A stretch of 64,000 nucleotides of DNA from a virus (taxonomy: Duplodnaviria > Caudoviricetes): IMG/VR virus record IMGVR_UViG_3300043812_000016, positions 64,001 through 128,000 of that record; one strand, given 5' to 3'. A model generated the notes under the pieces. It was not told the origin of the DNA. It ran no database searches and saw nothing but the letters and a program-made list of their open reading frames with translations. The position numbers and the translations under genes were made by a program. Below are positions 1,315 to 33,709 of the stretch, piece after piece. How positions within the stretch are numbered: position 1 is the stretch's first letter; each line of letters begins with the position of its first letter.

Positions 1315-1385
1315 AGTTTTTTATAATTTTGTCATGACTACTTCTACTAATTGTGCTATAATCATAAATGAAGGAGTTGATATTA

Positions 1386-2504
1386 ATGACTAGAAGAAAA
1401 ACTAATGAAGAATTTGTTAAACAGGTTAAAGAATTAGTAGGTGATGATTATACTTTTCTTGAACCTTATAAGAACAATAGAACTAAGTTATTAGTACGTC
1501 ATAATGTTTGTGGTAATGTGTATAGAGTTGTTCCTGATAGCTTTTTAAAGGGTCGTAGATGTCCTAAGTGTCGTAGGAAAGAAGTAACAAATAAGAGGCG
1601 TATGTCTAATGATGAGTTTATAAAACGTGTTAATGATTTAGTTGGTGATGAATACTCTGTATTAGAACCTTATGTTAATTCTCAAACACCTATTTTGATT
1701 AAACATAATGTTTGTGGTCATGTATTACAAATGAAACCAAACTCCTTTTTAAATGGTAGTCGTTGTAAATATTGTGCACATAATGTAAGATTAACTACGG
1801 ACGAGTTTAAAGATAGGATTAGTGGAATATATGGAAATGACTATACTGTTTTAGGCGATTATGTTAATTCCCATACGCCTATATTAGTTAGACACAACAT
1901 TTGTCACCATACTTATACAGTTAGACCTATGAATATAATGAGAGGTCAGAGATGTCCTTATTGCTTTAAGACTCCTAAAAAGACTACTAAGGAATTTCAA
2001 ATAGAATTGAATGAAATATATGGAAGAGGAGTTTATACAGTAGTCAGTCCTTATCGTGGGGCAAAAAAGAAAATAATGCTCAAACATAAGTGTGGCTATG
2101 TTTGGGGAACAAAGCCTAATTGGATGCTATCAAAAAGAGGTGGTTGTCCTATGTGCAATACCCCGCATGGAGAACTTATAATTAATAATATTTTAAAAGA
2201 CAGTGCTATATCTTATGAGCATCCTAAGAAGTTTAGTGACTTATTAGGCGTTGGCGGTTTTCCTTTGCATTATGACTTTTATATAGACGATCAGAGGGTA
2301 TTAATTGAATATCAAGGATTACAACACTATGAGCCTATTGATCATTTTGGTGGAAAAGAACAATTTAAGAAACAGCAGTATCATGATAAGTTAAAGCGCA
2401 AGTATGCAAAAGCTAACGGTTATAATTTAATTGAAATACCATATTCTTGTGATACTTACAATGATATAAAGAAGTGCTTAATTGAAGGTGGTTTAAAACT
2501 ATGA
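1386..2504 (+). CDS. Free-standing putative homing endonuclease: 4 Zn-ribbon repeats plus C-terminal Vsr/DUF559-like PD-(D/E)XK nuclease
   Basis: Four repeats of about 60-70 aa (EF..YxxL..Y....(I/L).vrHxxCG...CPxC). C-terminus LHYDFYI...IEYQGLQHY...HDKLKRKYA...LIEIPY. RBS AAGGAG favours the start at 1386. TG-TATAAT promoter just upstream. Confidence 0.8.
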   Translation: MTRRKTNEEFVKQVKELVGDDYTFLEPYKNNRTKLLVRHNVCGNVYRVVPDSFLKGRRCPKCRRKEVTNKRRMSNDEFIKRVNDLVGDEYSVLEPYVNSQTPILIKHNVCGHVLQMKPNSFLNGSRCKYCAHNVRLTTDEFKDRISGIYGNDYTVLGDYVNSHTPILVRHNICHHTYTVRPMNIMRGQRCPYCFKTPKKTTKEFQIELNEIYGRGVYTVVSPYRGAKKKIMLKHKCGYVWGTKPNWMLSKRGGCPMCNTPHGELIINNILKDSAISYEHPKKFSDLLGVGGFPLHYDFYIDDQRVLIEYQGLQHYEPIDHFGGKEQFKKQQYHDKLKRKYAKANGYNLIEIPYSCDTYNDIKKCLIEGGLKL

Positions 2505-3718
2505 CAAAAATAGACCAAGAACAGATTGGATTTAAGAAAGTTAATTCCCTAGACTTACATGGATTAATGGTTGACTATCATTATTTACACCGAGTAGTAG
2601 CTTGTAAGTATGCTTATGGAATGTACTACCAAAATCAATTAGTAGGAATGGTTACCTATACTCATGTACGTAAGTCTTTAGCTTCTTCAATCTCGCCTTT
2701 AGCTAATAAAGATAATACTTTAGAATTATCTCGATTATACATAAAAGACGAAGTAAGCCAAAACTTAAAGAATATTACTTCTAAGTTTGTTTCATGGACT
2801 TTAAGACAATTAAAGCAAGAACAAGATGGTAATTGGTTTATTATCTCCTTTGCTGATCAAGGTATGCACCATACAGGAGCAATTTACCAAGCTACTAACT
2901 TCTTATACTGTGGAACAACAGATTCTGGTATCTTTTGTTATAATGGACCAGATAAGAAAGGTGGTAAATGGGTTAAAGGACATCACTACCGTTTCTTTAT
3001 CCTACGTTCAATTAAGTATCGTTACATTATGTTCTTAGGTTCTAAGACGTTTAAGAAACAAGCCCGTAAGACCCTTAAATTTGAGATTGAACCTTATCCT
3101 AAACAAGATAGCATTCACTACTCAGTAGGTGATACAGAAGAACGTTTAATCCGTGATCGTCAAGAAAATAAGGTTTATACAGAAACTGAATTACTTAAAG
3201 CTTTTCCTAACTATGATTGGAATGGAGATAATGGAGAAGTAGTTAAACCTATTAAGCCTAAGGTTGTTAAAAAGGTTAATCAACACTTTGCCCCAGTCTA
3301 TGCTATCAGCACTAAAACTAATCAAGTCTTTCAGTTTGAGTCTATTCGCTCCTGTGCAGAAACTCTAAATGTAGGTGAACGTAATATTAAGCACTGCTTA
3401 GCTGATAAGAAAGGTTCTCTTGGTGGTTTTGTCTTTTGCAGACCAGATGATTACACCTCAGAGCTTGCTAAGGAATTAGTAGAAAACGCTAAGAAGAGTC
3501 CTAAGTATAATCATGATTTCATCGTTGATGGTAACTGGGTAGAGGGAATGACTAAAGTTCGAGAGATTGTAGGAGCTAGTCGTTCTTCTATTCATAGGGC
3601 AATTGATGTTAACCGTAGAGAGGTTAAAGGACACACAATTGATATTCCTAAGCCTAAGGATATTGTTAATCATTATAAGTCTGTTTATCAACCTTTAGTT
3701 ACATATTTAATTAGTTAA
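2501..3718 (+). CDS. Mom-like (GNAT-fold) DNA modification protein with C-terminal NUMOD1-like HTH domains
   Basis: YHYLHR, LELSRL and IISFADQGMHHTGAIYQATNFLYCG match the Mu Mom family pattern. C-terminal FESIRSCAETLNVGERNIKHCL resembles a NUMOD1 HTH. ATGA overlap with the upstream nuclease and its own RBS (GAAGGTGG). Confidence 0.78.
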   Translation: MTKIDQEQIGFKKVNSLDLHGLMVDYHYLHRVVACKYAYGMYYQNQLVGMVTYTHVRKSLASSISPLANKDNTLELSRLYIKDEVSQNLKNITSKFVSWTLRQLKQEQDGNWFIISFADQGMHHTGAIYQATNFLYCGTTDSGIFCYNGPDKKGGKWVKGHHYRFFILRSIKYRYIMFLGSKTFKKQARKTLKFEIEPYPKQDSIHYSVGDTEERLIRDRQENKVYTETELLKAFPNYDWNGDNGEVVKPIKPKVVKKVNQHFAPVYAISTKTNQVFQFESIRSCAETLNVGERNIKHCLADKKGSLGGFVFCRPDDYTSELAKELVENAKKSPKYNHDFIVDGNWVEGMTKVREIVGASRSSIHRAIDVNRREVKGHTIDIPKPKDIVNHYKSVYQPLVTYLIS

Positions 3719-9406: not shown

Positions 9407-9435
9407 TATTGTTAAGTAGAAAGGAACGGGATAAA

Positions 9436-11376
9436 ATGGCACTAATTCCTTCATCTGATACTATGAAGCGAATCTATCCAAAGTTTTATAATTCACGTCC
9501 TCACGTAGAAACGAGTTATGATGACTCAGCCTTAACTAATCAATCTTCCGATTCAGAAAAGAATATCTTTTTGCTAGGTTCAGCAACAGAAGGTAATCCT
9601 AATAATGTTTATGAAATTAAGTCATCTGCCAGCGCTCGTAAGATCTTTGGTTCTGGTGACTTAGTAAAGGCAATGGAATTGATTTGGAATCCAACGGGTG
9701 ACTACTACCAAAATGGTGGTAAGGTTTATGCTATGCGGGTTGAAAATGCTACGCAAGCTTCACTAGAAGAAGGTCCTATCACTATTACTTCTAAAGTTTT
9801 TGGTGCTAGTGCTAATAAGATTGGGGTTTCATTTACTCGGGACGCTTTATCACAGGGTTATAATTTACGGGTAGAATATGAACCACAAATGTACGCTAAG
9901 AATTACACTAACATCGGTAATATCTTTGCTATTTACCACGGTGGTCGTCAAGCTACAGCTAAGTACTATGGTTACAAGGTTGTAGGTAATGTTGCTCGTG
10001 CTAATAAGTTTATCTTAGCTATGGGTGATGATTCTAAGAATATGCAAGTAGTTCGTGAATTAGACCTTACTAAGGTTTCGTTTGACGAAGTACAAAAGCT
10101 TCTGTCCGCTATTAACGCAACACCGGGATTTCAATCTACAGTTTTGAAGACTTGCGCTCGCATCAGCACTGCAGACTTAGACTTAACTCCGGGTGACGAC
10201 TATGTAATGATTGGTACAGAAGATGAACCAACTACTGTTACTAGTGTTTACGGTGACTTGAAGTTATCTACTCGAATGGACCCTTACATTTCAGTAAGCA
10301 TTAATTCATTAGGTGCGCCTACGGGCGTTCAGGCTACTCCTACTGCTGATGGTGCTACTATTACTGCTACTCCAGTTAAGAAAGATATTCAAATTTTTGC
10401 TAATGAATACCTTTCTGGTGGAGACGATGGTCAAGTACCTATTTCATGGGCTGATAAGTTTAAGAATGTTCATGGTAAGAATGTTTACTACATTGTTCCA
10501 TTAACAGCCGAAGAAAATGTTCATGCTGAATTAGCTGAATTCCTTAGTGAAGAAAATATCTTAGGTTATAACTATATGTCATTTGTTGGTGGGGGTTATA
10601 ACGAAGACTTTAACTATGCAATTAACCGTCAATTAGGCTTGCAATCAAACCGTGTAGCTTTAGTTGCTAACTCTGGTATCTATACTAACTTGTCGGGTAA
10701 TGAAGTTCATATTCCTGCTTACTTAATGGCCGCTTATGTTGCTGGTATTGCTTCTAGTCTACCTATTGGTACTCCAGTTACTCATAAGCACCTTAACTTA
10801 GTAAGTTTGGATCAAAACTTCGATGGGGACGAACTTGATCAATTAGACGCTAATGGTGTTATTGCAATTGAAAACCAAGTACGTAGAAATACGTCTGGTG
10901 GATTTACTATTGTAGAAGATGTAACTACTTACAACTCTACTAACGAACCTACCAAGAATGTTGTTTCATTACAAGAAATTACAGACTTCTTATTTGACGA
11001 CTTGCGTTACTACCTTGAAGACAACTTCATCGGTATGCCAGTACATCAAATTACAAGTGGTTTGATTAATACCTTTATTGAAGCATTCTTGAAGCAACGG
11101 GTTTCTGATGGTATGTTAGCTAGTTATGACGGTACATCAATTCAAACTGTAATTAATGGTAACCAAGCCTATGTATCATTCTCCTGCGCTCCATCACGTG
11201 GGTTACGAACTATCTATGTTGCTGGTACTTATACTAACTTTGTATCAAGTGCTGGTGGTAATGGTGGTTCTAACTCTGATTATGATGGGATTGAAGGTAA
11301 TGGAATTAATCCAGACACGGAGACCGTGGCTGGGATCGAAGCCAACTCAAGAGTCCAGACTCACTATGCAGATTAG
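9436..11376 (+). CDS. Contractile tail sheath protein
   Basis: SRPHVET, IFGSGDLVKAMELIWNP and FTIVEDVTTYN..KNVVSLQEITDFL motifs. RBS AAGGA before ATG 9436. Confidence 0.93.
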   Translation: MALIPSSDTMKRIYPKFYNSRPHVETSYDDSALTNQSSDSEKNIFLLGSATEGNPNNVYEIKSSASARKIFGSGDLVKAMELIWNPTGDYYQNGGKVYAMRVENATQASLEEGPITITSKVFGASANKIGVSFTRDALSQGYNLRVEYEPQMYAKNYTNIGNIFAIYHGGRQATAKYYGYKVVGNVARANKFILAMGDDSKNMQVVRELDLTKVSFDEVQKLLSAINATPGFQSTVLKTCARISTADLDLTPGDDYVMIGTEDEPTTVTSVYGDLKLSTRMDPYISVSINSLGAPTGVQATPTADGATITATPVKKDIQIFANEYLSGGDDGQVPISWADKFKNVHGKNVYYIVPLTAEENVHAELAEFLSEENILGYNYMSFVGGGYNEDFNYAINRQLGLQSNRVALVANSGIYTNLSGNEVHIPAYLMAAYVAGIASSLPIGTPVTHKHLNLVSLDQNFDGDELDQLDANGVIAIENQVRRNTSGGFTIVEDVTTYNSTNEPTKNVVSLQEITDFLFDDLRYYLEDNFIGMPVHQITSGLINTFIEAFLKQRVSDGMLASYDGTSIQTVINGNQAYVSFSCAPSRGLRTIYVAGTYTNFVSSAGGNGGSNSDYDGIEGNGINPDTETVAGIEANSRVQTHYAD

Positions 11377-12657: not shown

Positions 12658-15600
12658 ATGTCAGTGTCACGATATACAGTAAAACTTGATATTGGCGATG
12701 GTCGTTTTAAATCTCTTGCTAGTCAGTTAAACAGATTAAATAAAGAAATTGATCGGGTCTATCAACGAGGTCAAGATAATAACAATACTGTAAGTGACAA
12801 AGACTTAACTAACTTACAAAGTCATTTATCTGGTCTTGTACAGGCAATTGATGATAAAAAGCAACGGACTAATGAACAATTAGATCAAGCAAGGATTGTT
12901 AATGATACAGACCAGATTGCTAAATTTTTAGACGAATTAAAAGAGTTGACAGACGCTGGTAAGGAGTCTAATCAACTCTTTTCTTCTTATAAATTTAATC
13001 AAGTAAACAATTATCGAGTTAATTCTTCAAGAGCATTTAGAACTAATGACTTCGATAAACTTAATTCTGATTTTCAACATGATTTAACTGATTTAAAAGA
13101 TAATATTGGTAAGTTAAGTAATCGTAGTAAGATTTTAGAAAGACGTTGGGATCGTGGCGTTTTTAATGGTGCGGTTACTTATGAACGGTGGCAAAAGTAT
13201 CAAGACCAAAATCAAACCCAAGCCAACGAGTATGATAATTATAATAATCAATATCAAGAATTAAAAAAGCAGTATGAAGACCAGTTACAACAATTAACTA
13301 AGGAACGAAATGTTTTAAATAATCAGATTGAGTCTGGTAAAGGTAGTCAAGATGATATTACTAAACGATCTGCATTAGACGAACAGATCATAAAAATGCG
13401 AAAGGTAGATCAGACTTTAAGTGATTTAGCTAATACACTCAACAATACTGGAAGTCGGATTAATCTCTCTAATGCTAAGCTACATGATAAACAGACTGTA
13501 GATACTGTTGTTTTACCCGCTAAGGATTCACTAGAAGGTTTTCTTAGTACTCATAAGCGAATTCTTACTCGCTCTGCTATTGTAGGTGCAGTTGGTAATA
13601 CTATACGTGCTTATAATACAGGAAATAGTCTTATTTTAAATAATTTTGATAATATTAAGTCAACTGTTTATGCTTCTGGTTTAGGAGAAAATAAGGTAGA
13701 AAATACTTTAGCAGACGCTGGATTTAGTATGGGCTATGGTTTAGATGAGATGAGTAATTATCTTAATAATTATACGTCCGCTACTGGTAATGCTAATTTA
13801 AGTCGAAATCAAATTAAAGACGTAACAAGGTCTTGGGCTGGATTGTCTCGATATTCTGGTGCTAATGATTCTACCACTCAAAACTTGGAATACGTAAGTG
13901 CTATGACCTCATTAGCTGGTACTAAAGAATTTAGTAGCTTAGCGAATGCAATTCAAAATGAGATTACTAATTCTGGTATGAATGCAAAGGCTAATGAGCA
14001 ACAACAAGCCCTAGCTAATATGTATCAAACAGCTTTTAATGTTTCTGGTAGTACTTTATCAACTAGAGATCAAAAAGAAATTGCTGGTTTTCAAGGGGTT
14101 ATGGCTCAAACCGGTAAGTCTGAATTACAAGGACAACAGGGGGCGCAAGCCTATGCTGGTTTAGTCTCAGCCTTTCAGCCTAGTAACATAGCCTCTCTTA
14201 GGTTATTTACTGGCAATGATCCAGCTTATCAAACAAGAGAAGGTCATGCTCAAGCTATTTTTGATATGCAGGACGCTTCTAAACATCCATACAAATATAA
14301 GACTGCTATTGATAACCTTTTAAGAAATGCTAAGACACAAGCTCGTACTAAAAACGGTGATGTTACAATTGCTTCTGCTAATCTTTATAAATTATCAAAA
14401 GAGAGCGGTGGTAATCTTTCACCTCAACAAGCTAAAGACTTAGTAGAGCTTTATAAGCATAAGAAGTTTACTAAGAAGAATGTTGATAAGATTGTTAAGG
14501 GTAGTGGCAAAGGAAATAAAGATAAATATGATAAAACTGGTGCTAAGACCATTCAGCAACAGCAAAAGGCTATTCAAGAAAGTGAAGTTAAAGCTTCCCA
14601 TGCTTTAAATCATTTCACCCATAAGCTTAATTGGATAAATAAGACTTTTTGGATTAGTAATATTATGTCTGGAGTAGGAACGTCTATAGGTGTTTCTATG
14701 TTAGGTGATCTAGGAGTAGGTCTTATTTATGGAGGTTATGCTAAGAGTGGTTATCAAAAGATAGCAGGTAGTCTTAAGAATCGAGGACTTAAAGGTACTT
14801 TATCTGCTATTAAAGGTAAGGGTAGTAGCCTAAAAGATTCCTTAATTTCGATTATAAGCAACGCTAAGAGCGATAAGTCTAGTTCCAGTGTATCTGGTAC
14901 TAAAATGATTAAAAGAGCTAAATCGGGGCTTAAAATTAATCCTACGACACTTGTAAAATCTGGATCTAAAGTTCCTGCTAGAAAGATAGGTAAAGCCGGT
15001 GCTTTAATTGGTGTTGGTATGGGTGCTTATGCTTTATATGATAGTTATAAGAATGATAATAAAGCTCATGCTTCTACAGTTAACCCTAAAGAAGATAATT
15101 CTCGTTCTAAGAATAAGAAACAGTCTAATAAGAAAGCTTCTAGTATGACTGTTAGTAAGTTAGCTAAGCAGGTTCAGAACAAATATAAGCGACTTCATAA
15201 GTCAGAGTGGCGTTTAATTGATTATCTTAATACTTATTGGGATATTTTCTTGCGTAAAGCTAAAGAATCTGGTAGTAGCTCTAGCTCTAGTGATGATGTT
15301 GGTAGTGACTCAGGAGGAGATTCTGCTAAGTCCCCAGAAGAGTGGAAGGATGATATTAAAAAAGCCGCCAAAGCTATGGGACAGAATGTATCAGACGAAC
15401 AAGTCAATATGATTGTTTCCATGATTAAGGCTGAGTCTGGAGGAGATCCTACTGTTACTCAGCAGATTAGTGATATTAATTCGGCTAATGGTCATCCAGC
15501 TCAAGGTCTTTTACAATACGTCCCTTCAACTTTTGAACATTATGCAGTTAAGGGTCATACAAATATTAAATCTGGTTATGATCAATTACTTGCTCTATTT

Positions 15601-15999
15601 AATGACTCTAACTGGGCTAGAGATATTCATTATGGTGGTGGATGGGGTCCTACTGGTAACCCTATTAAGACTAATGCTACTGGCGGTATTCGTTATCACG
15701 CTACAGGTAACACATATAGTACACGGGTAGCTCAGACTCCTACTAATCAATTCAATATGAATTTACAGCATCCATTAGAATTGCAAACACTTTTTAAGCA
15801 GAATATTAGGAAGTCTCAAAACTATATTAAAGTTCAGAGAAATCGTGGAAAAGTTAATGTTAATGTAAACGTTAATCGGAGTAATATTCTTAAGGTTCAG
15901 CAGGTTGTAGACCAAACAATTAATGAGGAATTTAACTTTTGGTTGCAGTCTAAGAAGGCTGAACAGTATGCAAGCTTTTATAGTAATGAAGTTGGGTAG
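12658..15999 (+). CDS. Tape-measure-like tail protein 1 with C-terminal lytic transglycosylase (SLT) domain
   Basis: Coiled-coil N-terminus and Ala/Gly/Gln-rich core. C-terminal IKAESGGDP...GHPAQGLLQYVPSTF...YDQLLA SLT motif. Confidence 0.8.
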   Translation: MSVSRYTVKLDIGDGRFKSLASQLNRLNKEIDRVYQRGQDNNNTVSDKDLTNLQSHLSGLVQAIDDKKQRTNEQLDQARIVNDTDQIAKFLDELKELTDAGKESNQLFSSYKFNQVNNYRVNSSRAFRTNDFDKLNSDFQHDLTDLKDNIGKLSNRSKILERRWDRGVFNGAVTYERWQKYQDQNQTQANEYDNYNNQYQELKKQYEDQLQQLTKERNVLNNQIESGKGSQDDITKRSALDEQIIKMRKVDQTLSDLANTLNNTGSRINLSNAKLHDKQTVDTVVLPAKDSLEGFLSTHKRILTRSAIVGAVGNTIRAYNTGNSLILNNFDNIKSTVYASGLGENKVENTLADAGFSMGYGLDEMSNYLNNYTSATGNANLSRNQIKDVTRSWAGLSRYSGANDSTTQNLEYVSAMTSLAGTKEFSSLANAIQNEITNSGMNAKANEQQQALANMYQTAFNVSGSTLSTRDQKEIAGFQGVMAQTGKSELQGQQGAQAYAGLVSAFQPSNIASLRLFTGNDPAYQTREGHAQAIFDMQDASKHPYKYKTAIDNLLRNAKTQARTKNGDVTIASANLYKLSKESGGNLSPQQAKDLVELYKHKKFTKKNVDKIVKGSGKGNKDKYDKTGAKTIQQQQKAIQESEVKASHALNHFTHKLNWINKTFWISNIMSGVGTSIGVSMLGDLGVGLIYGGYAKSGYQKIAGSLKNRGLKGTLSAIKGKGSSLKDSLISIISNAKSDKSSSSVSGTKMIKRAKSGLKINPTTLVKSGSKVPARKIGKAGALIGVGMGAYALYDSYKNDNKAHASTVNPKEDNSRSKNKKQSNKKASSMTVSKLAKQVQNKYKRLHKSEWRLIDYLNTYWDIFLRKAKESGSSSSSSDDVGSDSGGDSAKSPEEWKDDIKKAAKAMGQNVSDEQVNMIVSMIKAESGGDPTVTQQISDINSANGHPAQGLLQYVPSTFEHYAVKGHTNIKSGYDQLLALFNDSNWARDIHYGGGWGPTGNPIKTNATGGIRYHATGNTYSTRVAQTPTNQFNMNLQHPLELQTLFKQNIRKSQNYIKVQRNRGKVNVNVNVNRSNILKVQQVVDQTINEEFNFWLQSKKAEQYASFYSNEVG

Positions 16000-16007
16000 G
16001 TGATTGA

Positions 16008-19000
16008 GTGAGCAAGCAAGAAGATACAAATATTAAGGTTACGGCTGATGTTGACCCCGCCAAAGCGAGTCTTCGAGAAATTGAGGATCTAGTTAGTTCT
16101 ACCCAACAGAAGATTAATCGGGTATTTAGTACTGTACAAGATAATAACGGTCAGATTAGTAATAAGCAGTTAGCTGGGGTTCAAAATGGCTTTGGTCGTT
16201 TAGACGAAGTTAAATCCGCTTTAGATAATGCTCTTAACCAAGCTAAGGCAACTCAAAATGGTTCTAAGCTAGAAGAAAGCATTAATACTTTAGCTCCTAA
16301 GTTAGATCTAGTTGTTAGTAGTTTAAGAGAGTTAAGATCTGGTAATAATAGTACTAAGCTTGATTCTATCTTTAATGCTCGTACAACTACTTCTCGTGCT
16401 TTTAGAGATGATAGTGCTACTATTCGTGGTGAACAGGGAGACTTTAGTCAACAAAATTTACATTATGAGAGTTTAGCTAGAGAAAGCCGATCTGATATTC
16501 ATAATTTAGCTAGTTCGCTTAAACGTGAAATGGGTAACTTAGACGTTGGTAGGAAGTCTGGTTATATTTCATATAATCGTTATCACCAGTACAAAGCCTC
16601 GTCTCAGTCTATTCAAAGCCGTTTGCAAGAACAACGAGATCGGTTTAATTCTCCTACTGGTGATATTGCTCGTTTTGCTAGTTATTATCAAAATTTACAA
16701 ACTCAAGGCAAAAGAAGCTAATAATGTTGCTTCTGCACCGGGTGCAACTACTGAGCAGGTTCGTTATGCTAGAGCTTTAGACGAACAAGTTAAGCACCTA
16801 GAAAAGGTTAATGAGCGATTTAAGAAGCAGGAAGAAGAATTACGAACTGCCGAAAAGAATTCAGAGTCGTTTAATGATCGCCTTAATGATACTCAAGGGA
16901 GTAACTATTGGCGATGATCCTAATTCTTTTATGGGTCAGCTTAATAAGCGTAAATATACTATTTTACGTGGTGCTATCTGCCTCGGAGGCGCTTCTATTG
17001 CTAGTGCTTATGCTCAAGGAAATAGTTTAAGACTTTCTAGTTTTGACGATATTAAGTCTACTGCATATGCTAATGGCGGTAGAGATGGTGAAGTTCTTAA
17101 TACCTTAGGCGACTATGGTTATAAATATGGTTATAATGGCGCAGAAATGGGTCAGTTTGCCAATGCTTATACTTCTACTACTGGTAATGTGGGGAGTACT
17201 AGAGATGTTGCTGGTGTTGCTCAGACGTGGGCTAGACAATCTCGTATCACAGGAGCTAATGCACAGAGTACTTTAGGGCTAGAACAGACTGTCGGTAATA
17301 GTGCTAATTTAAATTCTAGTCAGATGAGTAGTGTTGGTAATGCAATTACTAATTCTATTATTAATTCTGGTATGAGTGCTAAGGCAACTGAACAGCAACA
17401 AGGATTATCTATGTTAATCCAGAATGCAAGTAATCAGGGTCTTACTGCTCGTGATGAAAAGAACTTAGCGGGCTTCCAAGGTGCGATTGCTAGTGGCGGG
17501 GCACAATTCCAAGGTACACAAGGCGCTCAAAATACTATGCAGTTAGCTCAAGGATTAGGTAATGTTAATAACCCAATGATGAGACAGCTTTTTGCTCAGT
17601 CTAATCCTAGTCGCTATACAGGGGTAGAGGGTTCTGCTAATATGGTTTTTGATATGCAAGAGTTCCAGAAGAAACCATGGAAGATGAAAGGAATTCTCCA
17701 AAATGCTGAAAAAGATTTTGGTAGTCGCAAGGTTGCTTCCGCTAATCTATATCAGGCGACTGGTGTTCCGGCAGAGACTATTGAAAAGTGGATTCAATTA
17801 GCAGATTCTGGTAAGTTAGACAAGAAGCATATAGATAAGCTAGAAAAATCATCTAGTGCAAGTAAAGAAGGCGGGAAAGCAGATCAGGATTATGATAAGA
17901 CGGGAGCTTCACAACTTCAAAAGTATAATTCTGCATTAGCTGATTCTGCTATGAAAGCTAGTCAAGCTTTAGACGGTTTACGTGGTATTATTGCTAAGGC
18001 TTATAAGGCTGGTGGTGGGTTATCTCCATTTGTTTCTGGTGTCGCTAGTGCATTTGGTGCTGGTGCTGGAAATCTTATGAGTATCTATGCTCTTGATAGG
18101 CTAAGAGGTAAAGGTGGTTCTGGAGGTGCTGGAGGGTCTGGTATCTTAGGGCGTATCTTTAAAGGTGGTAAATCACCTGTAGAAAAGGAAGCTGAAAAAG
18201 CAACTGCTAAAGCTGGAGAAGAAGCTGTTAAAATTGGTGCTAAATCAGTTTCCCGTTCTGGTATCAAAGCTACTGCTTCTGGTATTCTAAAGTCTAGTAA
18301 ATTAAGAGGTTTAGTTCGTGGTGCTAAGGCTGGACTACCGGGTGTTGGTGATTTAGTCTTTGGCGGTTTAGACTTAGCCACCTCTGTTGCAACTACTAAG
18401 AAAGGTACTAAAGCTCGTAGAAAGGCTGTTGGTTCTAGCTTAGGCTCATCTGCTGGTAGTGTTGCTGGTGGGGTTGTTGGTGGACTGATAGGTTCAATTT
18501 TCCCCGGTGCTGGTACTGCGGTTGGTGCAGTTGCTGGTAGTGTAGCTGGTGGCTGGTTAGGTGATAAGTTTGGTGGTTTCCTTGGTGGTAAGATAGGTAA
18601 GTCTAAGGATAAAGCTATTAATAAAGCTAAAGGACAATCACTTAGAGACGCTCGTAAGACTGCAAGTAAGTATAATAAGTCTGGTGGCGTACTAAGAGGT
18701 ATTCTAAAGAATGGTAAGCGATTCTTACCGGGGGTTGCTCTTGGTATTGCAGGCTTAGGCTTAATGGACGATTTCTTTGGAGGTAAAGCTAAAGCTTCCT
18801 CAAAGAAGGGCAGTGAGAAATCAGAAGCATGGCGTATTTTGCGTGGCTATGATAAAATGCTTGATCATGCTATGCGAGTAGTTCAATCTGCTAAGTCTAT
18901 TAAGAACGGTGGAGATTCTAGTTCTAAGAGTGACGACTCAGATATATCTGGTACTTCCGGTGAGGGAGAAAAGGCTATTCGGAGCGTTGCAAAAGCTATT

Positions 19001-19750
19001 GGTAAGAAGCTTGGTGTTGATCCTAAACTAGTTTATGCACAATTGATGCACGAAACTAATGGCGGTACTCATATGGCTGGTAAAAACAACTATGGTGGTA
19101 TTGTTTATGCTGGTCAGAAAGGTGCTAAAGCTGGGTCTCATCAGCCAGACGGTAGTGGTAATTATGCAGACTTTGATAGCCTAGACGACTTTGCTAATGC
19201 TTATGCTTCTACTCTTCAGAAGATGGGTATTAATAGTAGTATTAAGTCTGTTAATGACTGGGCTAATCAGCTTCATAGTAAGGGTTACTTTACTGATTCT
19301 CCTGCTAATTATGCTGGGGGAATGGAAAGATTTGCTAAGCAGTATGCTGTTGGTGGTATTCGTCAATACGCTTCTGGTAGTCCTTTAATCACAGATCATC
19401 CAACTACTAATAATGGTAGTGATGTTTATGGTGAGGCTGGGACAGAAGCTTATGTACCATTAAATGCTGGTCATTACTTTAGTGGGCTTTCTACTTTAGA
19501 CGACTTAGCTGGTATCTTTGGTAAAAAGGTAGTTAATCCGGGAGTTTCTGAGTCAGGTGGAAAATCAACTACTATTAATCCAAGTTATAATATTAACCTT
19601 ACGATTAATGGTGGTACTGATGATCCAGATACATTAGCCCAAACAGTGGCTAATAAAGTAAGAGAAATGCTAAGTCAATATGATAGTCAGCAAGCAATGA
19701 GTAACCAGCAAACATTCTTTGCTAATGAAACTTCTGGACTTCTAGTCTAA
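16008..19750 (+). CDS. Tape-measure-like tail protein 2 with C-terminal glucosaminidase (GH73-like) domain; two apparent frameshifts near 16707 and 16897
   Basis: Three overlapping ORFs join into about 1246 aa if one G is removed at each ACTCAAGG site. Gly-rich hydrophobic segments. AQLMHET...NNYGGI...YADFDSLDD...GYFTD motif. Confidence 0.78.
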
Positions 19751-28642: not shown

Positions 28643-28767
28643 TTGACAACCATGGGTGTATGCTTTATACTAATAATGTTCCTTAATTCAGTAAGGAAAT
28701 TGTTTCAAACTTTTATCTGAATTCTTTGTTTGTTTTTCTTTGGCAGGGTTTGTCCCTGTTTTTTTTT
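28643..28767 (+). ncRNA. Candidate small RNA unit 2
   Basis: TTGACA-17 nt-TATACT promoter. 5' hairpin TTCCTTA-attcag-TAAGGAA. Terminator CAGGG-tttgt-CCCTG followed by T9. No ORF. Confidence 0.45.
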
Positions 28768-28777
28768 ATCTTAGCTA

Positions 28778-28934
28778 TTGTATTTTAATTAAAGTGTGAT
28801 ATACTATAATCATGGTTATGTTAATGAATTATTTAGTTTGACTGGCAGAGACTCGATAATTGTTATACATTACCTTCTTTATTAAGATTAGTCGATTAAA
28901 AGAGTGCTTATCCTGTTGGGTAGGCGCTCTTTTT
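28778..28934 (+). ncRNA. Candidate small RNA unit 3
   Basis: TTGTAT-16 nt-TATACT/TATAAT promoter. Strong terminator AGAGTGCTTATCC-tgtt-GGGTAGGCGCTCT followed by Ts. No ORF with an RBS. Confidence 0.42.
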
Positions 28935-28996: not shown

Positions 28997-30163
28997 ATGA
29001 GTAGAAGAAAAACAATAGAAGAATTTAAGCAGGAAGTTTACAATTTAGTAGGTAACGAGTATACAGTAAAGTCTAATACATACGTTAATGCTCATACTAA
29101 GTTGTTGATAATACATAATAAGTGTGGCTATGGGTGGAAGGTTACACCTCTTAGATTTAATCGTGGACAACGTTGTCCCATCTGCTCTAAAAAGCCTAAG
29201 GATAGTGCTGAGAGGTTAGCCTATGAGGTTTTAATAGATACAAATAATAATTGGTATTTAGATTATAATACTAAATCTGATATTTTTCTTACTAGTAGGG
29301 TTAATCTTATTAATTGGAAGACAGGAGAATCAGTGAATTTAACTTGGAACAAATTTAGGGTAGGAGGCATTAATGACTCATCTTTTAAATATTTAGTTAG
29401 TAGTATTAAGAATAATTCAGTAAAGAAACGAGTTCAGTTAACTAAATTAGCTATTAGTAAAATTACTCCACCCTTAGTATTTAAACATCATTTTGACTCG
29501 ATTGTTAATGGTAATTATATGTTACTTAGTCCTTATCAAGGTTCAAATAAAAAGATTAAAGTGAAACATCTTGTCTGTGGAAATACTTATTGGGTAAGGC
29601 AGGATAAGTTTATTAATGAGGGCCAAAGATGTGCTTGGTGTGCTTCGCATCACAGCATTCAATCCTATAGTAAGAGACTTAGTGATGTTAGTAAGTCTCG
29701 ATATATACTTATAAATAATAATGAGTTTAAGAATAGCAAGTCTTATGCTACTTATTTGTGTACTCGTTGTGGACGTAGGTTTAAGCAACGTGCTGATTTA
29801 ATGTTGCAGGGGTATGGTTGCCCTTATTGTAATCAGTCTACTGGGGAGAGATTAGTTGATAGGGTCCTTTCACAGGTCTACCAATTAGAGGAGTCTCAAG
29901 ATTTTTACTATGGTTATGTATTGCCTAATAAATTACATTTAGACTTCTATTTACCTTCATCTAACTTAGCTATTGAATATGATGGTAAACAACATTATGT
30001 ACCTGTAGACTATTTTGGTGGAGAAGAAGGATTTAAAAAGATTCAAGATAGGGATAGAAAAAAAGATAAGTATTGTAAGGAGTGTGGTATCAAGCTAATT
30101 AGGATTCCCTATACTATTAATACCTATAGAGGGATAAAAGAGCTACTAGCCTCTTACCTGTGA
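28997..30163 (+). CDS. Free-standing putative homing endonuclease (Zn-ribbon repeats plus Vsr/DUF559-like nuclease)
   Basis: MSRRKTIEEF start and three Cys/His repeats. C-terminal LHLDFYLP...IEYDGKQHY...RDRKKDKYC...LIRIPY. Has its own promoter and RBS. Confidence 0.8.
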   Translation: MSRRKTIEEFKQEVYNLVGNEYTVKSNTYVNAHTKLLIIHNKCGYGWKVTPLRFNRGQRCPICSKKPKDSAERLAYEVLIDTNNNWYLDYNTKSDIFLTSRVNLINWKTGESVNLTWNKFRVGGINDSSFKYLVSSIKNNSVKKRVQLTKLAISKITPPLVFKHHFDSIVNGNYMLLSPYQGSNKKIKVKHLVCGNTYWVRQDKFINEGQRCAWCASHHSIQSYSKRLSDVSKSRYILINNNEFKNSKSYATYLCTRCGRRFKQRADLMLQGYGCPYCNQSTGERLVDRVLSQVYQLEESQDFYYGYVLPNKLHLDFYLPSSNLAIEYDGKQHYVPVDYFGGEEGFKKIQDRDRKKDKYCKECGIKLIRIPYTINTYRGIKELLASYL

Positions 30164-30273: not shown

Positions 30274-30955
30274 TTGGCAACTGTAGCAGGACAAACGGTA
30301 AACACGGGTAACCGAATTTATATTATGTGTAAGAACCATTTAATTGCACGTGCTCAAAGTTTGACAGCTAATAGAAGTTACGGTACCGAAGGGGTATACG
30401 AAATCGGATCCATTAACTAGCATAGTGGTGGTTAACAGTAATGTTAATTGAAAAATTCTACTAAACGGGTAAAGCTGAATAACTGAATTGAATAGGCTAG
30501 TAAGAAAGGCTACGTCCAGAGGTGGATAGAGCTAACCAACCGTTCTAAAACAAAAGACTAACGATTAAGTCCTTATTAGATTAAGATAAGGTAATGTAGA
30601 ACCTCTTATAGAGAGGAAGATATAATCTAATCTTTTTAGAAATAAGTAGTTAATATAATGTATGCCAAGGGAACACGTATACCTCAAATATACGGGTTCT
30701 CTTACACTAGAAAGATTTCGTATGGTACGAGATAACCTTGCATCTAAACAAATGGATATAGCCCATCTGGGAGAAGACATCTTGCAAGCTGACGTTTTAA
30801 CCATTTCTGTAATGGATAGCGTTACTAAAATGGTAGTCGAAGCGTTTTACGGATGCAGTGCTTCCACCTACAACACCAGTTATAGAGCCAATCAAATCGT
30901 ATCTGAATCTATTGAGTTTCTTTACCTCAGCTCTTCGACTGGCTCACAGTCATAA
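30274..30955 (+). CDS. Tail tube protein, intron-split: join(30274..30413,30661..30955), 144 aa
   Basis: Exon 1 MATVAGQTVNTGNRIYIMCKNHLIARAQSLTANRSYGTEGVYEIGS(I) plus exon 2 MPREHVYLKYTG... rebuilds the K/Twort tube motif QTVxTGN...GVYEIGSIMPxEHVYL. TTG start with RBS AAAGGAG. Confidence 0.93.
30414..30660 (+). mobile_element. ORF-less group I self-splicing intron (247 nt) in the tail tube gene
   Basis: 5' exon ends in U and the intron ends in G. P1 CCAU|UA/UAGUGG with a U-G pair at the splice site. P10 GCAUA pairs with exon 2 UAUGC. P2 has a GUAA loop. P3 UUCUAC/GUAGAA, P4 AACGG/CCGUU, R-like AGACUA, P8 CCUCU/AGAGG, S-like AAGAUAUAAUCU. Confidence 0.93.
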
Positions 30956-30993: not shown

Positions 30994-31042
30994 AATAGCG
31001 TATATCATAATCTAATATCTAGGTAACGATATACGCTATTTT
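30994..31042 (+). terminator. Inverted repeat/terminator after the tail tube gene
   Basis: AATAGCGTATATC ... GATATACGCTATT 13-bp stem followed by Ts. Confidence 0.7.
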
Positions 31043-31125
31043 ATATGCTTTATTTCTTTTGATAAAATATACTCTTGAATGATAAATTAATTGGGGTATA
31101 ATTATATAAGAAAGAAGGAATAGTA

Positions 31126-32973
31126 TTGAAAAAATTAACTTTTGAAGAATTTAATTATAGGGCACAGCGTATGCTAGGATCTAGTTATGTTTTTTACCCT
31201 CCATATAAGGATATGAAAACGCCTATTAAATATAAGCATTTAGTGTGTGGGACTACTGGAACTTTAATTCCTGATAATATTTTTAGAGGTAAAGCTAAAT
31301 GTAAGTATTGTAGTATGAGGAGGAGATCTGGTAGACGTATGATAACAGACGATGAGTTTAGGAAGAGGCTACATAAAGTTCGCCCTAGCGATGATATTAT
31401 TTTACTTGAGCCTATACATGGTATTTTTAAGAAAACCAAGGCAAAATGTCTCGTGTGTGGGTATGGTTCAAAAGGTGAATGGACTCCTCTTCCAGTTAAC
31501 TTATTAAAGGGTAAAGGGTGTCCTAATTGTGCAGGTAATGCTCCTAAAACACCAGATAGTGTAATTAAAGAAGTTAGAGATTTAGGGAATGGTGAGTATG
31601 AATTATTAGGAACTAAGAGAACTAAAAAAGATGGTTTATGGTTACATTTACTCCATAAAGAGTGCGAAAATGATTATTGGGTTCGTGACTATAGTTTCAT
31701 ACATGGTTATCGTTGTAAATTTTGTGCTAACAAAGCAACAGGCGACAGATGTAGGCTATCCTTAGACGAAGTTAAGCAACGAATTACAAGGGTTGCTGAT
31801 GGTCGTTATACATATGTAAGTGGTAATTATAAGAACAACCAAAGCCCTATCTATGTAAGGCACAACGTATGTGGTACTGTGTTTAAAACCACATGGGGGC
31901 AACTTAGTGCTAATAAGGGCTTGTGTCCTAATTGTGGGTCTTCTAATGGTGAACAGGCGATTATGAACTATTTAGTATCACACAGGGTTAGTTACTCTTA
32001 TGGCTACTTAATTCCAGACTTAATAGATAAGAAAAATCTTCACTTTGACTTCTGGTTGCCTCAAGTCAATACTGCTATAGAATATGATGGTCAACAGCAT
32101 TTTAAGCCTGTCGATTTGTTTGGAGGTAAAGAGCGCTATGAATTACAGAAGAAACACGATAGGATGAAAGATGATTACTGTAAGAAAAAAGGTATTAATT
32201 TAATTAGGATTAAGTATAATGAAAATATTAAAGATACTTTAAATTGTTATCTTTTACCTCTAGTAGATAAGCTTAGTGATGTTGATTTTAGAAAGGTAGA
32301 AAGTACAGAGCTTAATGAGTTAATGATTAAGTATCATTATTTACACCGTAAAGTGACTACTTCTTATTGTTATGGTTTATATTATCGAGGAAGTCTGGCA
32401 GGAATGGTAACATATACGAGACCTAGAATTAGCCTTGCTCAGTCAATCTCGCCTTTAGCTAATAAAGATAACACCCTAGAATTATCCCGATTATACATAA
32501 AAGACGAAGTAAGCCAAAACTTAAAGAATATTACTTCTAAGTTTGTCTCATGGACTTTAAGACAATTAAAGCAAGAGCAAGATGGCAACTGGTTTATTAT
32601 CTCTTTTGCCGATCAAGGTATGCACCATACGGGAGCAATCTATCAAGCTACTAATTTCTTATACTGTGGGACTACTAAACATCGTGAATACTCTTGGAAT
32701 GGATATGGTAAGCATGGCGGTGTATGGGAAAAAGGTCATTACTATAGGTATATGATAATTAGTCCTATCAAATATCGTTACATTATGTTCTTAGGATCAA
32801 AGACTTTTAAGAAACAAGCCCGTAAGACCCTTAAATTTGATATTGAACCTTATCCTAAACAAGATAGCGTTCACTATTCTGTAGGTGATACAGAGGAAAG
32901 ACTAATTCGAGACCGAGAAACTGGTAAGATTTGGAAAGAGTCTGAGTTAGTTAAACATCTAAAGAAAGATTAA
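31126..32973 (+). CDS. Fusion protein: Zn-ribbon repeats, Vsr/DUF559-like endonuclease and Mom-like GNAT domain
   Basis: Four Cys/His repeats, then LHFDFWLP...IEYDGQQHF...HDRMKDDYC, then YHYLHR...LELSRL...FADQGMHHTGAIYQATNFLYCG in one frame. Promoter TTGAAT...TATAAT and RBS AAGGA upstream. Confidence 0.85.
   Translation: MKKLTFEEFNYRAQRMLGSSYVFYPPYKDMKTPIKYKHLVCGTTGTLIPDNIFRGKAKCKYCSMRRRSGRRMITDDEFRKRLHKVRPSDDIILLEPIHGIFKKTKAKCLVCGYGSKGEWTPLPVNLLKGKGCPNCAGNAPKTPDSVIKEVRDLGNGEYELLGTKRTKKDGLWLHLLHKECENDYWVRDYSFIHGYRCKFCANKATGDRCRLSLDEVKQRITRVADGRYTYVSGNYKNNQSPIYVRHNVCGTVFKTTWGQLSANKGLCPNCGSSNGEQAIMNYLVSHRVSYSYGYLIPDLIDKKNLHFDFWLPQVNTAIEYDGQQHFKPVDLFGGKERYELQKKHDRMKDDYCKKKGINLIRIKYNENIKDTLNCYLLPLVDKLSDVDFRKVESTELNELMIKYHYLHRKVTTSYCYGLYYRGSLAGMVTYTRPRISLAQSISPLANKDNTLELSRLYIKDEVSQNLKNITSKFVSWTLRQLKQEQDGNWFIISFADQGMHHTGAIYQATNFLYCGTTKHREYSWNGYGKHGGVWEKGHYYRYMIISPIKYRYIMFLGSKTFKKQARKTLKFDIEPYPKQDSVHYSVGDTEERLIRDRETGKIWKESELVKHLKKD
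32443..32916 (+). repeat. Dispersed repeat: Mom-like core shared with 2687-3160
   Basis: 32443-32676 and 2687-2920 encode 78 identical aa with only synonymous differences. 32767-32916 and 3011-3160 encode 48 of 50 identical aa. Confidence 0.92.
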
Positions 32974-33094
32974 GGGGAATTAAGAAAGAGGTATAACAAC
33001 GAAACTGTTGGAGAATATTCTTTCTTTTTATAATTAAGTATTGACAACCTGTCTATTCTATTGTATTATAATAGCTGTAAAGGAGTTGTTAAGT

Positions 33095-33709
33095 ATGCGA
33101 AGAAAAACTGATAAAGAATTTAAACAAGAATTGCATGATTTAGTAGGTGATGAATATACAGCTTTAGATCATTATGAGAAAGGAACAATTAAGATTCATA
33201 TTAAGCATAATAAATGTGGTCATGTGCTATATGTTTATCCTTTGGCTTTTTTACAGAGACCTCACTGCCCTTATTGTAGTGGTCGCCCACGTTACACCCC
33301 AGCAGAGTATAGGGAGTATGTAAAAGAAATGACTAATGACGAATACGAGGTTTTAGATGATTTTGTAAATAATAGGACACCAATTCGTTATAAGCATAAG
33401 AAATGTGGTACTGTATTTAAGACTCTTCCTAATACCTTTAGTGTTGGGTCTGCTCGCTGTCCTGTATGTGCTAATAAGATTCGTTCTAAGAAGCAATCCT
33501 TAACTACTGAGGAATTTAAGGAGCGAGTTCGTAACTTACCACATGGAGACGAATTCGAAGTTCTATCTGAATATAAAGGCTACCACCAACGTGTTACCTT
33601 TAAGCATAAGAAGTGTGATACTGTATGGATGACTACCCCAGCCAGTTTCTTTCTTAGTAAACATAAGTGTCCGGTATGTGCAATTAATTCAACTAGAAAG
33701 GTTAAGTAA
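33095..33709 (+). CDS. Zn-ribbon repeat protein lacking the nuclease domain
   Basis: MRRKTDKEF start and three HxKC...CPxC repeats, ending right after the third. TTGACA promoter and AAGGAG RBS upstream. Confidence 0.75.
   Translation: MRRKTDKEFKQELHDLVGDEYTALDHYEKGTIKIHIKHNKCGHVLYVYPLAFLQRPHCPYCSGRPRYTPAEYREYVKEMTNDEYEVLDDFVNNRTPIRYKHKKCGTVFKTLPNTFSVGSARCPVCANKIRSKKQSLTTEEFKERVRNLPHGDEFEVLSEYKGYHQRVTFKHKKCDTVWMTTPASFFLSKHKCPVCAINSTRKVK

Follow-up and report, generated by a model that had tools for sequence, protein, structure and literature searches.

A phage gene joining a homing-type endonuclease to a Mom-like domain: a possible self-protecting homing cassette

The stretch of DNA analyzed here (the window, 64,000 nucleotides (nt)) comprises bases 64001-128000 of a complete 143,482-bp IMG/VR record, IMGVR_UViG_3300043812_000016, of a large myophage. 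Directly downstream of its intron-split tail tube gene, a gene was identified that joins an array of Zn-ribbons, a predicted nuclease of the EDxHD homing endonuclease type and a GNAT domain of the Mom family in one polypeptide of 615 amino acids (aa). The domain composition, the intact active sites, purifying selection, a patchy distribution beside conserved structural genes like that of homing endonuclease genes (HEGs) and the recurrent linkage of the two enzyme domains were directly observed. It is tentatively proposed, with a probability of about 0.42, that the fusion gene is a free-standing HEG which, together with its Mom GNAT domain, acts as a self-protecting homing cassette with a logic like that of restriction-modification (R-M) systems.

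Results

The fusion protein is encoded by one intact and conserved gene

The preliminary description of this DNA had claimed four Zn-ribbon repeats, an apparently intact nuclease and a full Mom-like domain in a single 615-aa frame, and all of these parts could be recovered:

31126..32973, plus strand: fusion gene (Zn-ribbon array, EDxHD nuclease and Mom-like GNAT), TTG start, 615 aa, no internal stop
31126..31935, plus strand: four Zn-ribbon repeats (treble-clef, CapR/DUF4379/DUF723-like), residues 1-270, from a regular expression search and matches to phrog_559 and phrog_681
31936..32259, plus strand: predicted EDxHD/Vsr-like PD-(D/E)XK nuclease, residues 271-378, from an AlphaFold2 domain model (predicted local distance difference test (pLDDT) 90.5) and VIA
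32227..32289, plus strand: inter-domain junction or linker, residues ~368-388, unbroken in 27 aligned homologues and in L097-L100
32260..32859, plus strand: Mom-family GNAT, residues 379-578, from Pfam PF25680 and from Mu Mom (8bv8) by sequence and fold
32860..32970, plus strand: clade-specific C-terminal extension (HY.VGDTEERLIRDR.TGK...), residues 579-615, kept in alignments A1 and A3 and absent from Mu Mom

The gene was compared with four independent IMG/VR assemblies (L097-L100), which are 87-96% identical at the nucleotide level and differ at 4-13% of bases, and with a set of fused proteins from a large protein collection (∼35 clusters, 479-796 aa, 41-95% identity). Invariance of residues was counted over 27 aligned fused homologues of 41-95% identity (27-29 for the Mom residues). 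The closest sequenced phages, the Lactobacillus myophages Semele and LP65, show only ∼40% aa identity (tail fibre), and a megablast search with the fusion gene against 50,697 phage records yielded no match, so that no close relative was found among GenBank phages.

All four assemblies start the gene at the identical TTG and keep the same 615 codons open; the stop follows at codon 616 in L097, L098 and L100, and the frame runs on in L099. Differences among these assemblies and the window frame are mostly synonymous. The junction is also unbroken in P0001, a cluster of 63 protein sequences at 95% identity. Against L097-L100, the ratio of nonsynonymous to synonymous substitution rates (dN/dS) ranged from 0.08 to 0.14 in the Zn array and from 0.06 to 0.11 in the nuclease; the Mom part, at 0.03-0.07, had the lowest value of the three in 4/4 comparisons. 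All three parts of the protein are under purifying selection.

It is hardly conceivable that the single frame stems from a mistake in assembly or sequencing, or that a recently formed fusion is decaying to a pseudogene. A broken version does occur in Lactococcus phage AM9, where a stop divides a nuclease coding sequence (CDS) from an in-frame 136-aa fragment, but the 615-codon frame is open in four independent assemblies in spite of their mostly synonymous base differences, and the junction is kept in all aligned homologues and in the 63 sequences of P0001. No stop or frameshift separates the domains in L097-L100 or in the homologues, and neither domain is degenerate. The independent assemblies and the homologues thus confirm that the single-chain fusion is a genuine, conserved gene, and an artefact is essentially excluded.

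The nuclease resembles EDxHD homing endonucleases

The motif ...HFDFWLP...IEYDGQQH...KHDRMKD... was found in the nuclease part, and residues E276, D308, E319, Q324, H325, D345 and K348 are invariant. Searches of PDB sequences with this domain, as single protein and as profiles A1 and A2, returned no nuclease and no similarity to 3r3p. The domain was placed by structure comparison only. VIA of the model gave a Z of 10.2 to I-Bth0305I (3r3p_B; root mean square deviation 3.1, 96/98 residues aligned), 10.2 to the DUF559-like 3hrl_A and 9.9 to Vsr (1cw0_A), three of the only 7 among 48,161 chains that reached a Z of ≥8. Foldseek by itself gave a weak match (E 7.6e-3).

A composite EDxHD motif defines the I-Bth0305I family, in which the phage 'Hef-type' endonucleases are already counted (Taylor et al., 2011; PMC3239194). 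In the fusion protein it would correspond to E276, D308, H325 and D345, assigned by order and spacing and not from a structural alignment. The model thus points to an EDxHD/Vsr-like homing endonuclease of the Hef/I-Bth0305I kind, which is predicted to cleave DNA. The label of its family in phrog_559, 'HNH endonuclease', is wrong for the fusion family.

The Zn-ribbon array is modular

Units of the form [H/C]xxC...CxxC were located by regular expression at residues 38-62, 108-135, 177-200 and 246-270, with a period of ∼69 aa. The first and the last unit are invariant (H38, C41, C59, C62 and H246, C249, C267, C270), and the number of repeats ranges from 2 to 6 among the homologues counted. Such variation is as expected for a modular DNA-binding array, and the array is predicted to recognize DNA.

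The Mom-like domain keeps most residues needed by Mu Mom

Residues 388-578 matched Pfam PF25680 with 106.9 bits (E 1.4e-30; cut-off 27.1), and the domain matched phrog_1384 (E 1.1e-41) and, among PDB sequences, Mu Mom 8bv8 (E 1.5e-9). The top Foldseek match was likewise 8bv8_B (E 1.1e-10, template modelling score normalized to the target 0.73), while generic GNATs followed at E ∼1e-5 or weaker.

Activity of Mu Mom needs H58, Y59, R111, S124, D149 and Y159 as well as the essential R151 (Silva et al., 2026; PMC13219725). The first six align to H404, Y405, R455, S471, D496 and Y506, all of which are invariant in the fused homologues; R151 is considered in the discussion. Mu Mom also requires a helix-turn-helix (HTH)-like insertion (Mu ∼175-209). 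An insertion is also seen in the fused Mom and may correspond to it, but part of the aligned region is ∼12 residues shorter than in Mu, with a model pLDDT of only 67-86 there. According to the alignment, fused and stand-alone Mom-like proteins share the same active-site motifs and the same ∼12-residue shortening relative to Mu. The Mu dimerization residue W48 is not conserved in the fused Mom. A complex prediction with two copies of the Mom domain scored 0.13 against a mark of 0.42, which bears on dimerization neither way.

Mom-like domains are joined to three classes of endonuclease

An exhaustive search identified 1504 representatives with a Mom-like domain, most of which are stand-alone proteins of 200-260 aa. 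Other combinations were also observed, in addition to that of the window:

P0059: CapR/DUF4379/DUF723 zinc ribbons, then Mom, with space for a nuclease that is not called by Pfam
P0064: NUMOD4-HNH_3-NUMOD, then Mom
P0027, P0034, P0039, P0040: Mom, then NUMOD4-HNH_3-NUMOD
P0149: Mom, then GIY-YIG and HTH
P0110: ParB_N, then Mom

Nuclease and Mom are also encoded by adjacent genes, in both orders and in some cases with a 4-nt overlap. Mom is thus joined, on either side, to three unrelated endonuclease classes (EDxHD, HNH and GIY-YIG), all of kinds that are known from homing endonucleases of phages, which goes beyond chance adjacency and supports a functional link. Together with the conserved and selected fusion, these arrangements give good support to the functional link that had been claimed in the preliminary description. 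Its suggestion that the Zn repeats could target both activities in a fusion that lacks the NUMOD tail is not supported as it stands, and is weakened by several relatives (P0005, P0008, P0010, P0013, P0018 and P0020) with Zn repeats, nuclease, Mom and a NUMOD-like tail in a single chain; array and tail are therefore not alternatives. In the window clade, every Mom-like gene that was examined adjoins or is fused to an endonuclease module (for L012, P0054 and P0057, stand-alone relatives whose placement is uncertain, the contexts were not searched for endonucleases).

Pfam did not call Mom in the C-terminal parts of Internexus gp65 (Bacillus phage), F352 gp160 (Campylobacter phage) and AM9 gp117 (Lactococcus phage), and these proteins were not counted as Mom fusions. 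BLASTP revealed a GNAT-like but diverged region in F352 (E 4e-7); for Internexus it gave next to no similarity. In AM9 (L001, 3001-4527), the endonuclease CDS is followed by a stop and then by an in-frame 136-aa open reading frame (ORF), alignable to the beginning of the Mom region; the two are situated among fragments of the gene for the ribonucleotide reductase alpha subunit. The pair looks like a decayed copy of the fusion architecture, though Pfam makes no Mom call.

A close stand-alone Mom-like protein (P0054, 58% identity; L106, 2185-2952) is translated correctly only when TAG is read as Gln, and its phage probably uses a recoded stop codon.

The tail tube locus is a hot spot for endonuclease genes

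The neighborhood of the fusion gene contains the following features:

28997..30163, plus strand: 388-aa Mom-less endonuclease (Zn-ribbon and EDxHD) 5' of the tube gene (ORF, Pfam, PHROG)
30274..30413, plus strand: tail tube gene exon 1, residues 1-47, by tblastn with tube genes from L004 and L007, which are intronless
30414..30660, plus strand: insert of 247 nt without ORF that interrupts the tube gene, probably a small group I intron, from exon homology
30661..30955, plus strand: tail tube gene exon 2, residues 48-144, by tblastn with intronless tube genes
30996..31043, plus strand: terminator-like inverted repeat TAGCGTATATC...GATATACGCTA with T-run, between the tube and fusion genes, read from the sequence
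31075..31102, plus strand: promoter-like site TTGAAT-16-TATAAT upstream of the fusion gene, 10/12 matches
31110..31119, plus strand: ribosome-binding site GAAAGAAGGA, 6 nt 5' of the TTG start, read from the sequence
33041..33709, plus strand: 222-aa Zn-ribbon array without nuclease domain, directly 3' of the fusion gene (ORF, Pfam, PHROG)

That the tube gene upstream of the fusion gene contains an intron, as claimed earlier, is borne out by the exon alignment with intronless relatives: removal of the insert gives a continuous translation (...YEIGSI|MPREHVYL...). The last base is U in the 5' exon and G in the insert, and the 247-nt insert is common to L097-L100. At gathering thresholds Rfam found no RNA family in the window; under relaxed settings Intron_gpI matched the insert with 16.7 bits (E 0.15), below the gathering score. 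The intron call is based mainly on exon homology.

The composition of the tube locus differs between genomes:

Window, L004-L007, L097-L100: homing endonuclease-Mom (HE-Mom) fusion downstream of the tube gene
L101: separate Mom gene, then endonuclease gene, upstream of the tube gene
L103, L104: an endonuclease gene but no Mom
L102, L105: neither endonuclease nor Mom gene adjoining; in L102 only a short Zn-ribbon match ∼5 kb downstream

The locus thus behaves as a hot spot for free-standing endonuclease genes, with a patchiness like that of HEGs. In L004-L007 the tube gene is intronless despite the adjoining HE-Mom gene; it is uninterrupted and not obviously different at the site of intron insertion. 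If the target lies in the tube gene, such carriers need another protection.

The 222-aa protein 3' of the fusion gene is kept in L097-L100, with 84-98% identity over its full length in L097-L099 while in L100 the figure is 63% over residues 1-204. An endonuclease that was truncated and then retained for DNA binding is a possible origin of this protein. The terminator scan did not pick up the inverted repeat at 30996..31043. Promoter-like sites are no more frequent in this region than in shuffled sequences, and the promoter call at 31075..31102 therefore depends on position only. Two ORF-less units of promoter and terminator lie 5' of the endonuclease cluster (28643-28934), with TTGACA-17-TATACT at 28643 and terminators at 28742 and 28898. 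In the window the tube gene is situated ∼19 kb 3' of the sheath gene (9409-11376), past the tape-measure and tail-lysin genes; in L004 it directly follows the sheath gene.

Endonuclease modules are exchanged at the capsid locus

A split nuclease/Mom pair, the Mom protein with its own NUMOD tail, had been described earlier and was found directly after the major capsid gene of the window:

1368..2504, plus strand: 378-aa Zn-ribbon and EDxHD endonuclease paralogue, with a 4-nt overlap with the next gene
2501..3718, plus strand: 405-aa Mom-like paralogue with an I-HmuI NUMOD-like tail (Pfam Mom 103.9 bits, and PF22083)

The position after the capsid gene is occupied in different ways:

L002, L003: Zn-nuclease-Mom-NUMOD in one chain of 721-737 aa
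Window: nuclease gene overlapping a Mom-NUMOD gene by 4 nt
L094/95: nuclease gene overlapping a Mom-NUMOD4-HNH gene by 4 nt
L096: small gene between the nuclease and Mom genes

By position, the product of 2501-3718 is orthologous to the Mom portion of the 721-aa fusion encoded by L002, a genome 97% identical to the window. The Mom-NUMOD parts share 93% aa identity (L002 residues 315-721), while the nucleases share 35%. Therefore, the endonuclease module has been exchanged. Presence, absence and position vary at both the tube and the capsid locus, a mobile-element context as seen for EDxHD homing endonucleases.

The two Mom copies of the window are 91-98% identical at the nucleotide level at 2700-2898/32456-32654 and 3034-3123/32790-32879, whereas outside these tracts the identity is 50-65%. 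Such a mosaic points to gene conversion between the paralogues. The Mom gene itself as homing target of the flanking endonucleases was set aside, since the cassettes adjoin the essential capsid and tail tube genes, which are usual targets; the mosaic would nevertheless be compatible with this reading.

A 92-kb metagenomic phage contig (L007, 8001-15785) contains three nuclease-Mom fusions (479, 554 and 542 aa) and a Mom-less endonuclease within 8 kb, in the interval between capsid and tube genes. In L096, a gene for an IS605 OrfB/TnpB-like protein (497-1663; Cas12f1-like TNB domain) lies directly 5' of the major capsid gene. Elsewhere in the window, the ORFs at 12658-15999 and 16811-19750 both match phrog_1047 (tail-lysin/tape-measure; profile positions 6-853 and 302-1244) and are separated by a 237-aa ORF (16008-16721), which suggests a duplication or an interrupted gene.

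Discussion

A self-protecting cassette and its alternatives

The chemistry, the target site and the block of the cognate nuclease by the modification that we infer for the proposed homing cassette can be put as follows. The Zn-ribbon array would find a long DNA site, probably within the adjacent tail tube gene or close to it, and the nuclease would cut this site in co-infecting relatives that lack the cassette, after which recombinational repair would copy the cassette into the cut genome. The Mom domain would acylate the N6 of adenines in the DNA of the carrier itself; if it acts like Mu Mom, a glycyl group from Gly-tRNA might yield N6-carbamoylmethyl-adenine. The modification would shield the carrier genome from its own nuclease and, incidentally, from host restriction enzymes. 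In favor of such a cassette, Mom copies match endonucleases one-to-one within genomes, fusions arose repeatedly, and the tube gene is uninterrupted in L004-L007.

Several observations weigh against it. Around 130 of the 150 best Mom-like representatives are stand-alone, including the close relatives P0054 and P0057, and 73 of the 80 best IMG/VR loci with relatives of the nuclease lack Mom. As most members of both groups are unpaired, neither activity needs the other. The window paralogues at 28997-30163 and 33041-33709 have no Mom partner either, and the tube intron of the window genome could alone confer immunity at that site. The aligned fused Mom domain shows no apparent loss or gain compared to stand-alone forms, and with no such distinguishing feature nothing in the sequence indicates that Mom depends on the Zn array. 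Finally, Mu R151 is replaced by an invariant Gly, G498, and a His three positions further on is conserved; the co-substrate or the chemistry may therefore differ from those of Mu. The Arg was kept in 0/16 aligned Mom-family sequences other than Mu, fused or stand-alone, which commonly read AD-x-x-x-x-H. Judged from this alignment, the R151-less proteins form a subfamily within the Mom family, which need not use Gly-tRNA. A scan of the window found no tRNA gene, so that no connection to a phage tRNA-Gly can be drawn from it.

In the main alternative, held to be somewhat less probable, Mom is an autonomous, genome-wide anti-restriction cargo on a selfish endonuclease gene, and nuclease and modification are not cognate; the endonuclease would give mobility and the benefit from Mom would stabilize the selfish gene. 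The anti-restriction role of Mu Mom is established, Mom-like proteins as a rule stand alone, close relatives among them, and the aligned fused Mom resembles these forms. Moreover, fused, split and re-ordered forms interconvert freely, so that covalent coupling is not required. However, one copy of a cargo should suffice globally, yet two are present in the window and three in L007, and every copy has an endonuclease of its own. That Mom was fused independently, on either side, to three classes of endonuclease is also hard to square with accidental adjacency alone. Moreover, an endonuclease module adjoins or is fused to all window-clade Mom-like genes examined (again apart from the unsearched contexts of L012, P0054 and P0057).

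Mom might also serve the nuclease without protecting anything, as a DNA-binding or base-flipping module, as a dimerization scaffold that would unite two EDxHD domains, each with a single active site, for a double-strand break, or by acylation of something other than DNA. Mu Mom is a tight dimer that flips its target adenine in models, nucleases of the I-Bth0305I type need dimerization, R151 is not kept, and the distant Hef-like protein F352_160 of a Campylobacter phage has only a diverged GNAT-like C-terminus with no Pfam Mom. This is considered improbable, because the invariance of the remaining catalytic residues and the lowest dN/dS (0.03-0.07) fit an enzyme better than a scaffold; furthermore, split forms on separate polypeptides exist and the Mu dimerization residue W48 is not conserved.

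A narrower form of the cassette proposal, in which the Zn array aims Mom as well as the nuclease and Mom would be a sequence-targeted adenine acyl- or aminoacyltransferase that marks its own site on the carrier genome, so that self-immunity would come from modification and not from a disrupted or mutated target, is regarded as rather unlikely.

Implications

Homing endonucleases are thought to spare their carrier since the insertion or a polymorphism destroys the target. If the cassette proposal holds, protection by a modification that is covalently linked would represent another principle of immunity and would blur the boundary between homing endonucleases and R-M systems. If Mom is in addition aimed by the array, the EDxHD, HNH and GIY-YIG fusions with Mom would represent a general and unrecognized class of self-protecting homing cassettes, and the protein would provide a natural scaffold for site-directed adenine hypermodification. 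If Mom is only cargo, the gene would show how an anti-restriction function spreads on selfish endonuclease genes. The comparative data offer testable material in each case, with a conserved and selected family, modular arrays of 2-6 repeats and a Mom core joined to three classes; in many phage records, the Mom part has been left unannotated.

Comparison with known systems

The preliminary description had likened the fusion to type IIG R-M enzymes. Like these (e.g., BpuSI), it combines a PD-(D/E)XK nuclease and a DNA-modifying domain in one polypeptide. However, the modifying domain is a GNAT and not an S-adenosylmethionine-dependent methyltransferase, no shared target-recognition domain is evident, and the Zn array precedes the nuclease. 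No methyltransferase family appeared in the Pfam and PHROG output for the fusion protein, and BpuSI was only a weak generic fold match to the nuclease model (Z 5.2). The fusion protein is thus not a type IIG enzyme, although it may act in a similar way, and the likeness is kept as an analogy only.

With Mu Mom (8bv8), the fusion protein shares the GNAT fold, six activity residues and, apparently, a Mom-type insertion. Mu Mom is a stand-alone late protein of 241 aa (annotated CDS) of a temperate phage; the fusion differs from it by Gly in place of R151, the partly shortened insertion (∼12 residues) and a 37-residue C-terminal extension. With I-Bth0305I and Hef it shares the predicted catalytic fold, the E/D/H/D motif, the phage origin and an occurrence that is intron-associated or free-standing beside conserved genes. 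I-Bth0305I has N-terminal NUMOD/HTH motifs and is encoded inside its own intron, whereas the gene of the fusion protein is free-standing, and the protein has four Zn-ribbons and an additional Mom.

In collaborative homing, a free-standing HEG acts together with an ORF-less intron, as for F-CphI and psbA in cyanophages and mobE and nrdB in T-even phages. The arrangement in the window is similar, with an ORF-less intron in a conserved gene and a free-standing endonuclease gene directly downstream, whose product might cut at the site of intron insertion. To our knowledge, the F-CphI and mobE endonucleases carry no modification domain.

The closest precedent are the fusions of Mom to a restriction endonuclease (REase) in jumbo phages, possibly with several copies per genome, which were reported in a one-paragraph computational note (Iyer et al., 2021, Viruses 13:63; PMC7824862). 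Its authors predicted an R-M-like logic, with Mom shielding the DNA of the phage and the fused REase directed against other DNA. The present protein likewise has a Mom GNAT and a nuclease of REase fold in one phage polypeptide, but it is encoded by a 143-kb myophage, its nuclease is of the homing type with Zn-ribbons, and its gene forms a HEG-like cassette by an intron-split tube gene; Iyer et al. (2021) treat the nuclease as a restriction component. Proteins of the nuclease-Mom kind were thus already noted computationally in 2021 and are experimentally uncharacterized, and no literature that links Mom to homing endonucleases was found. New here are the homing endonuclease as nuclease partner and the pairing of Mom with three endonuclease classes.

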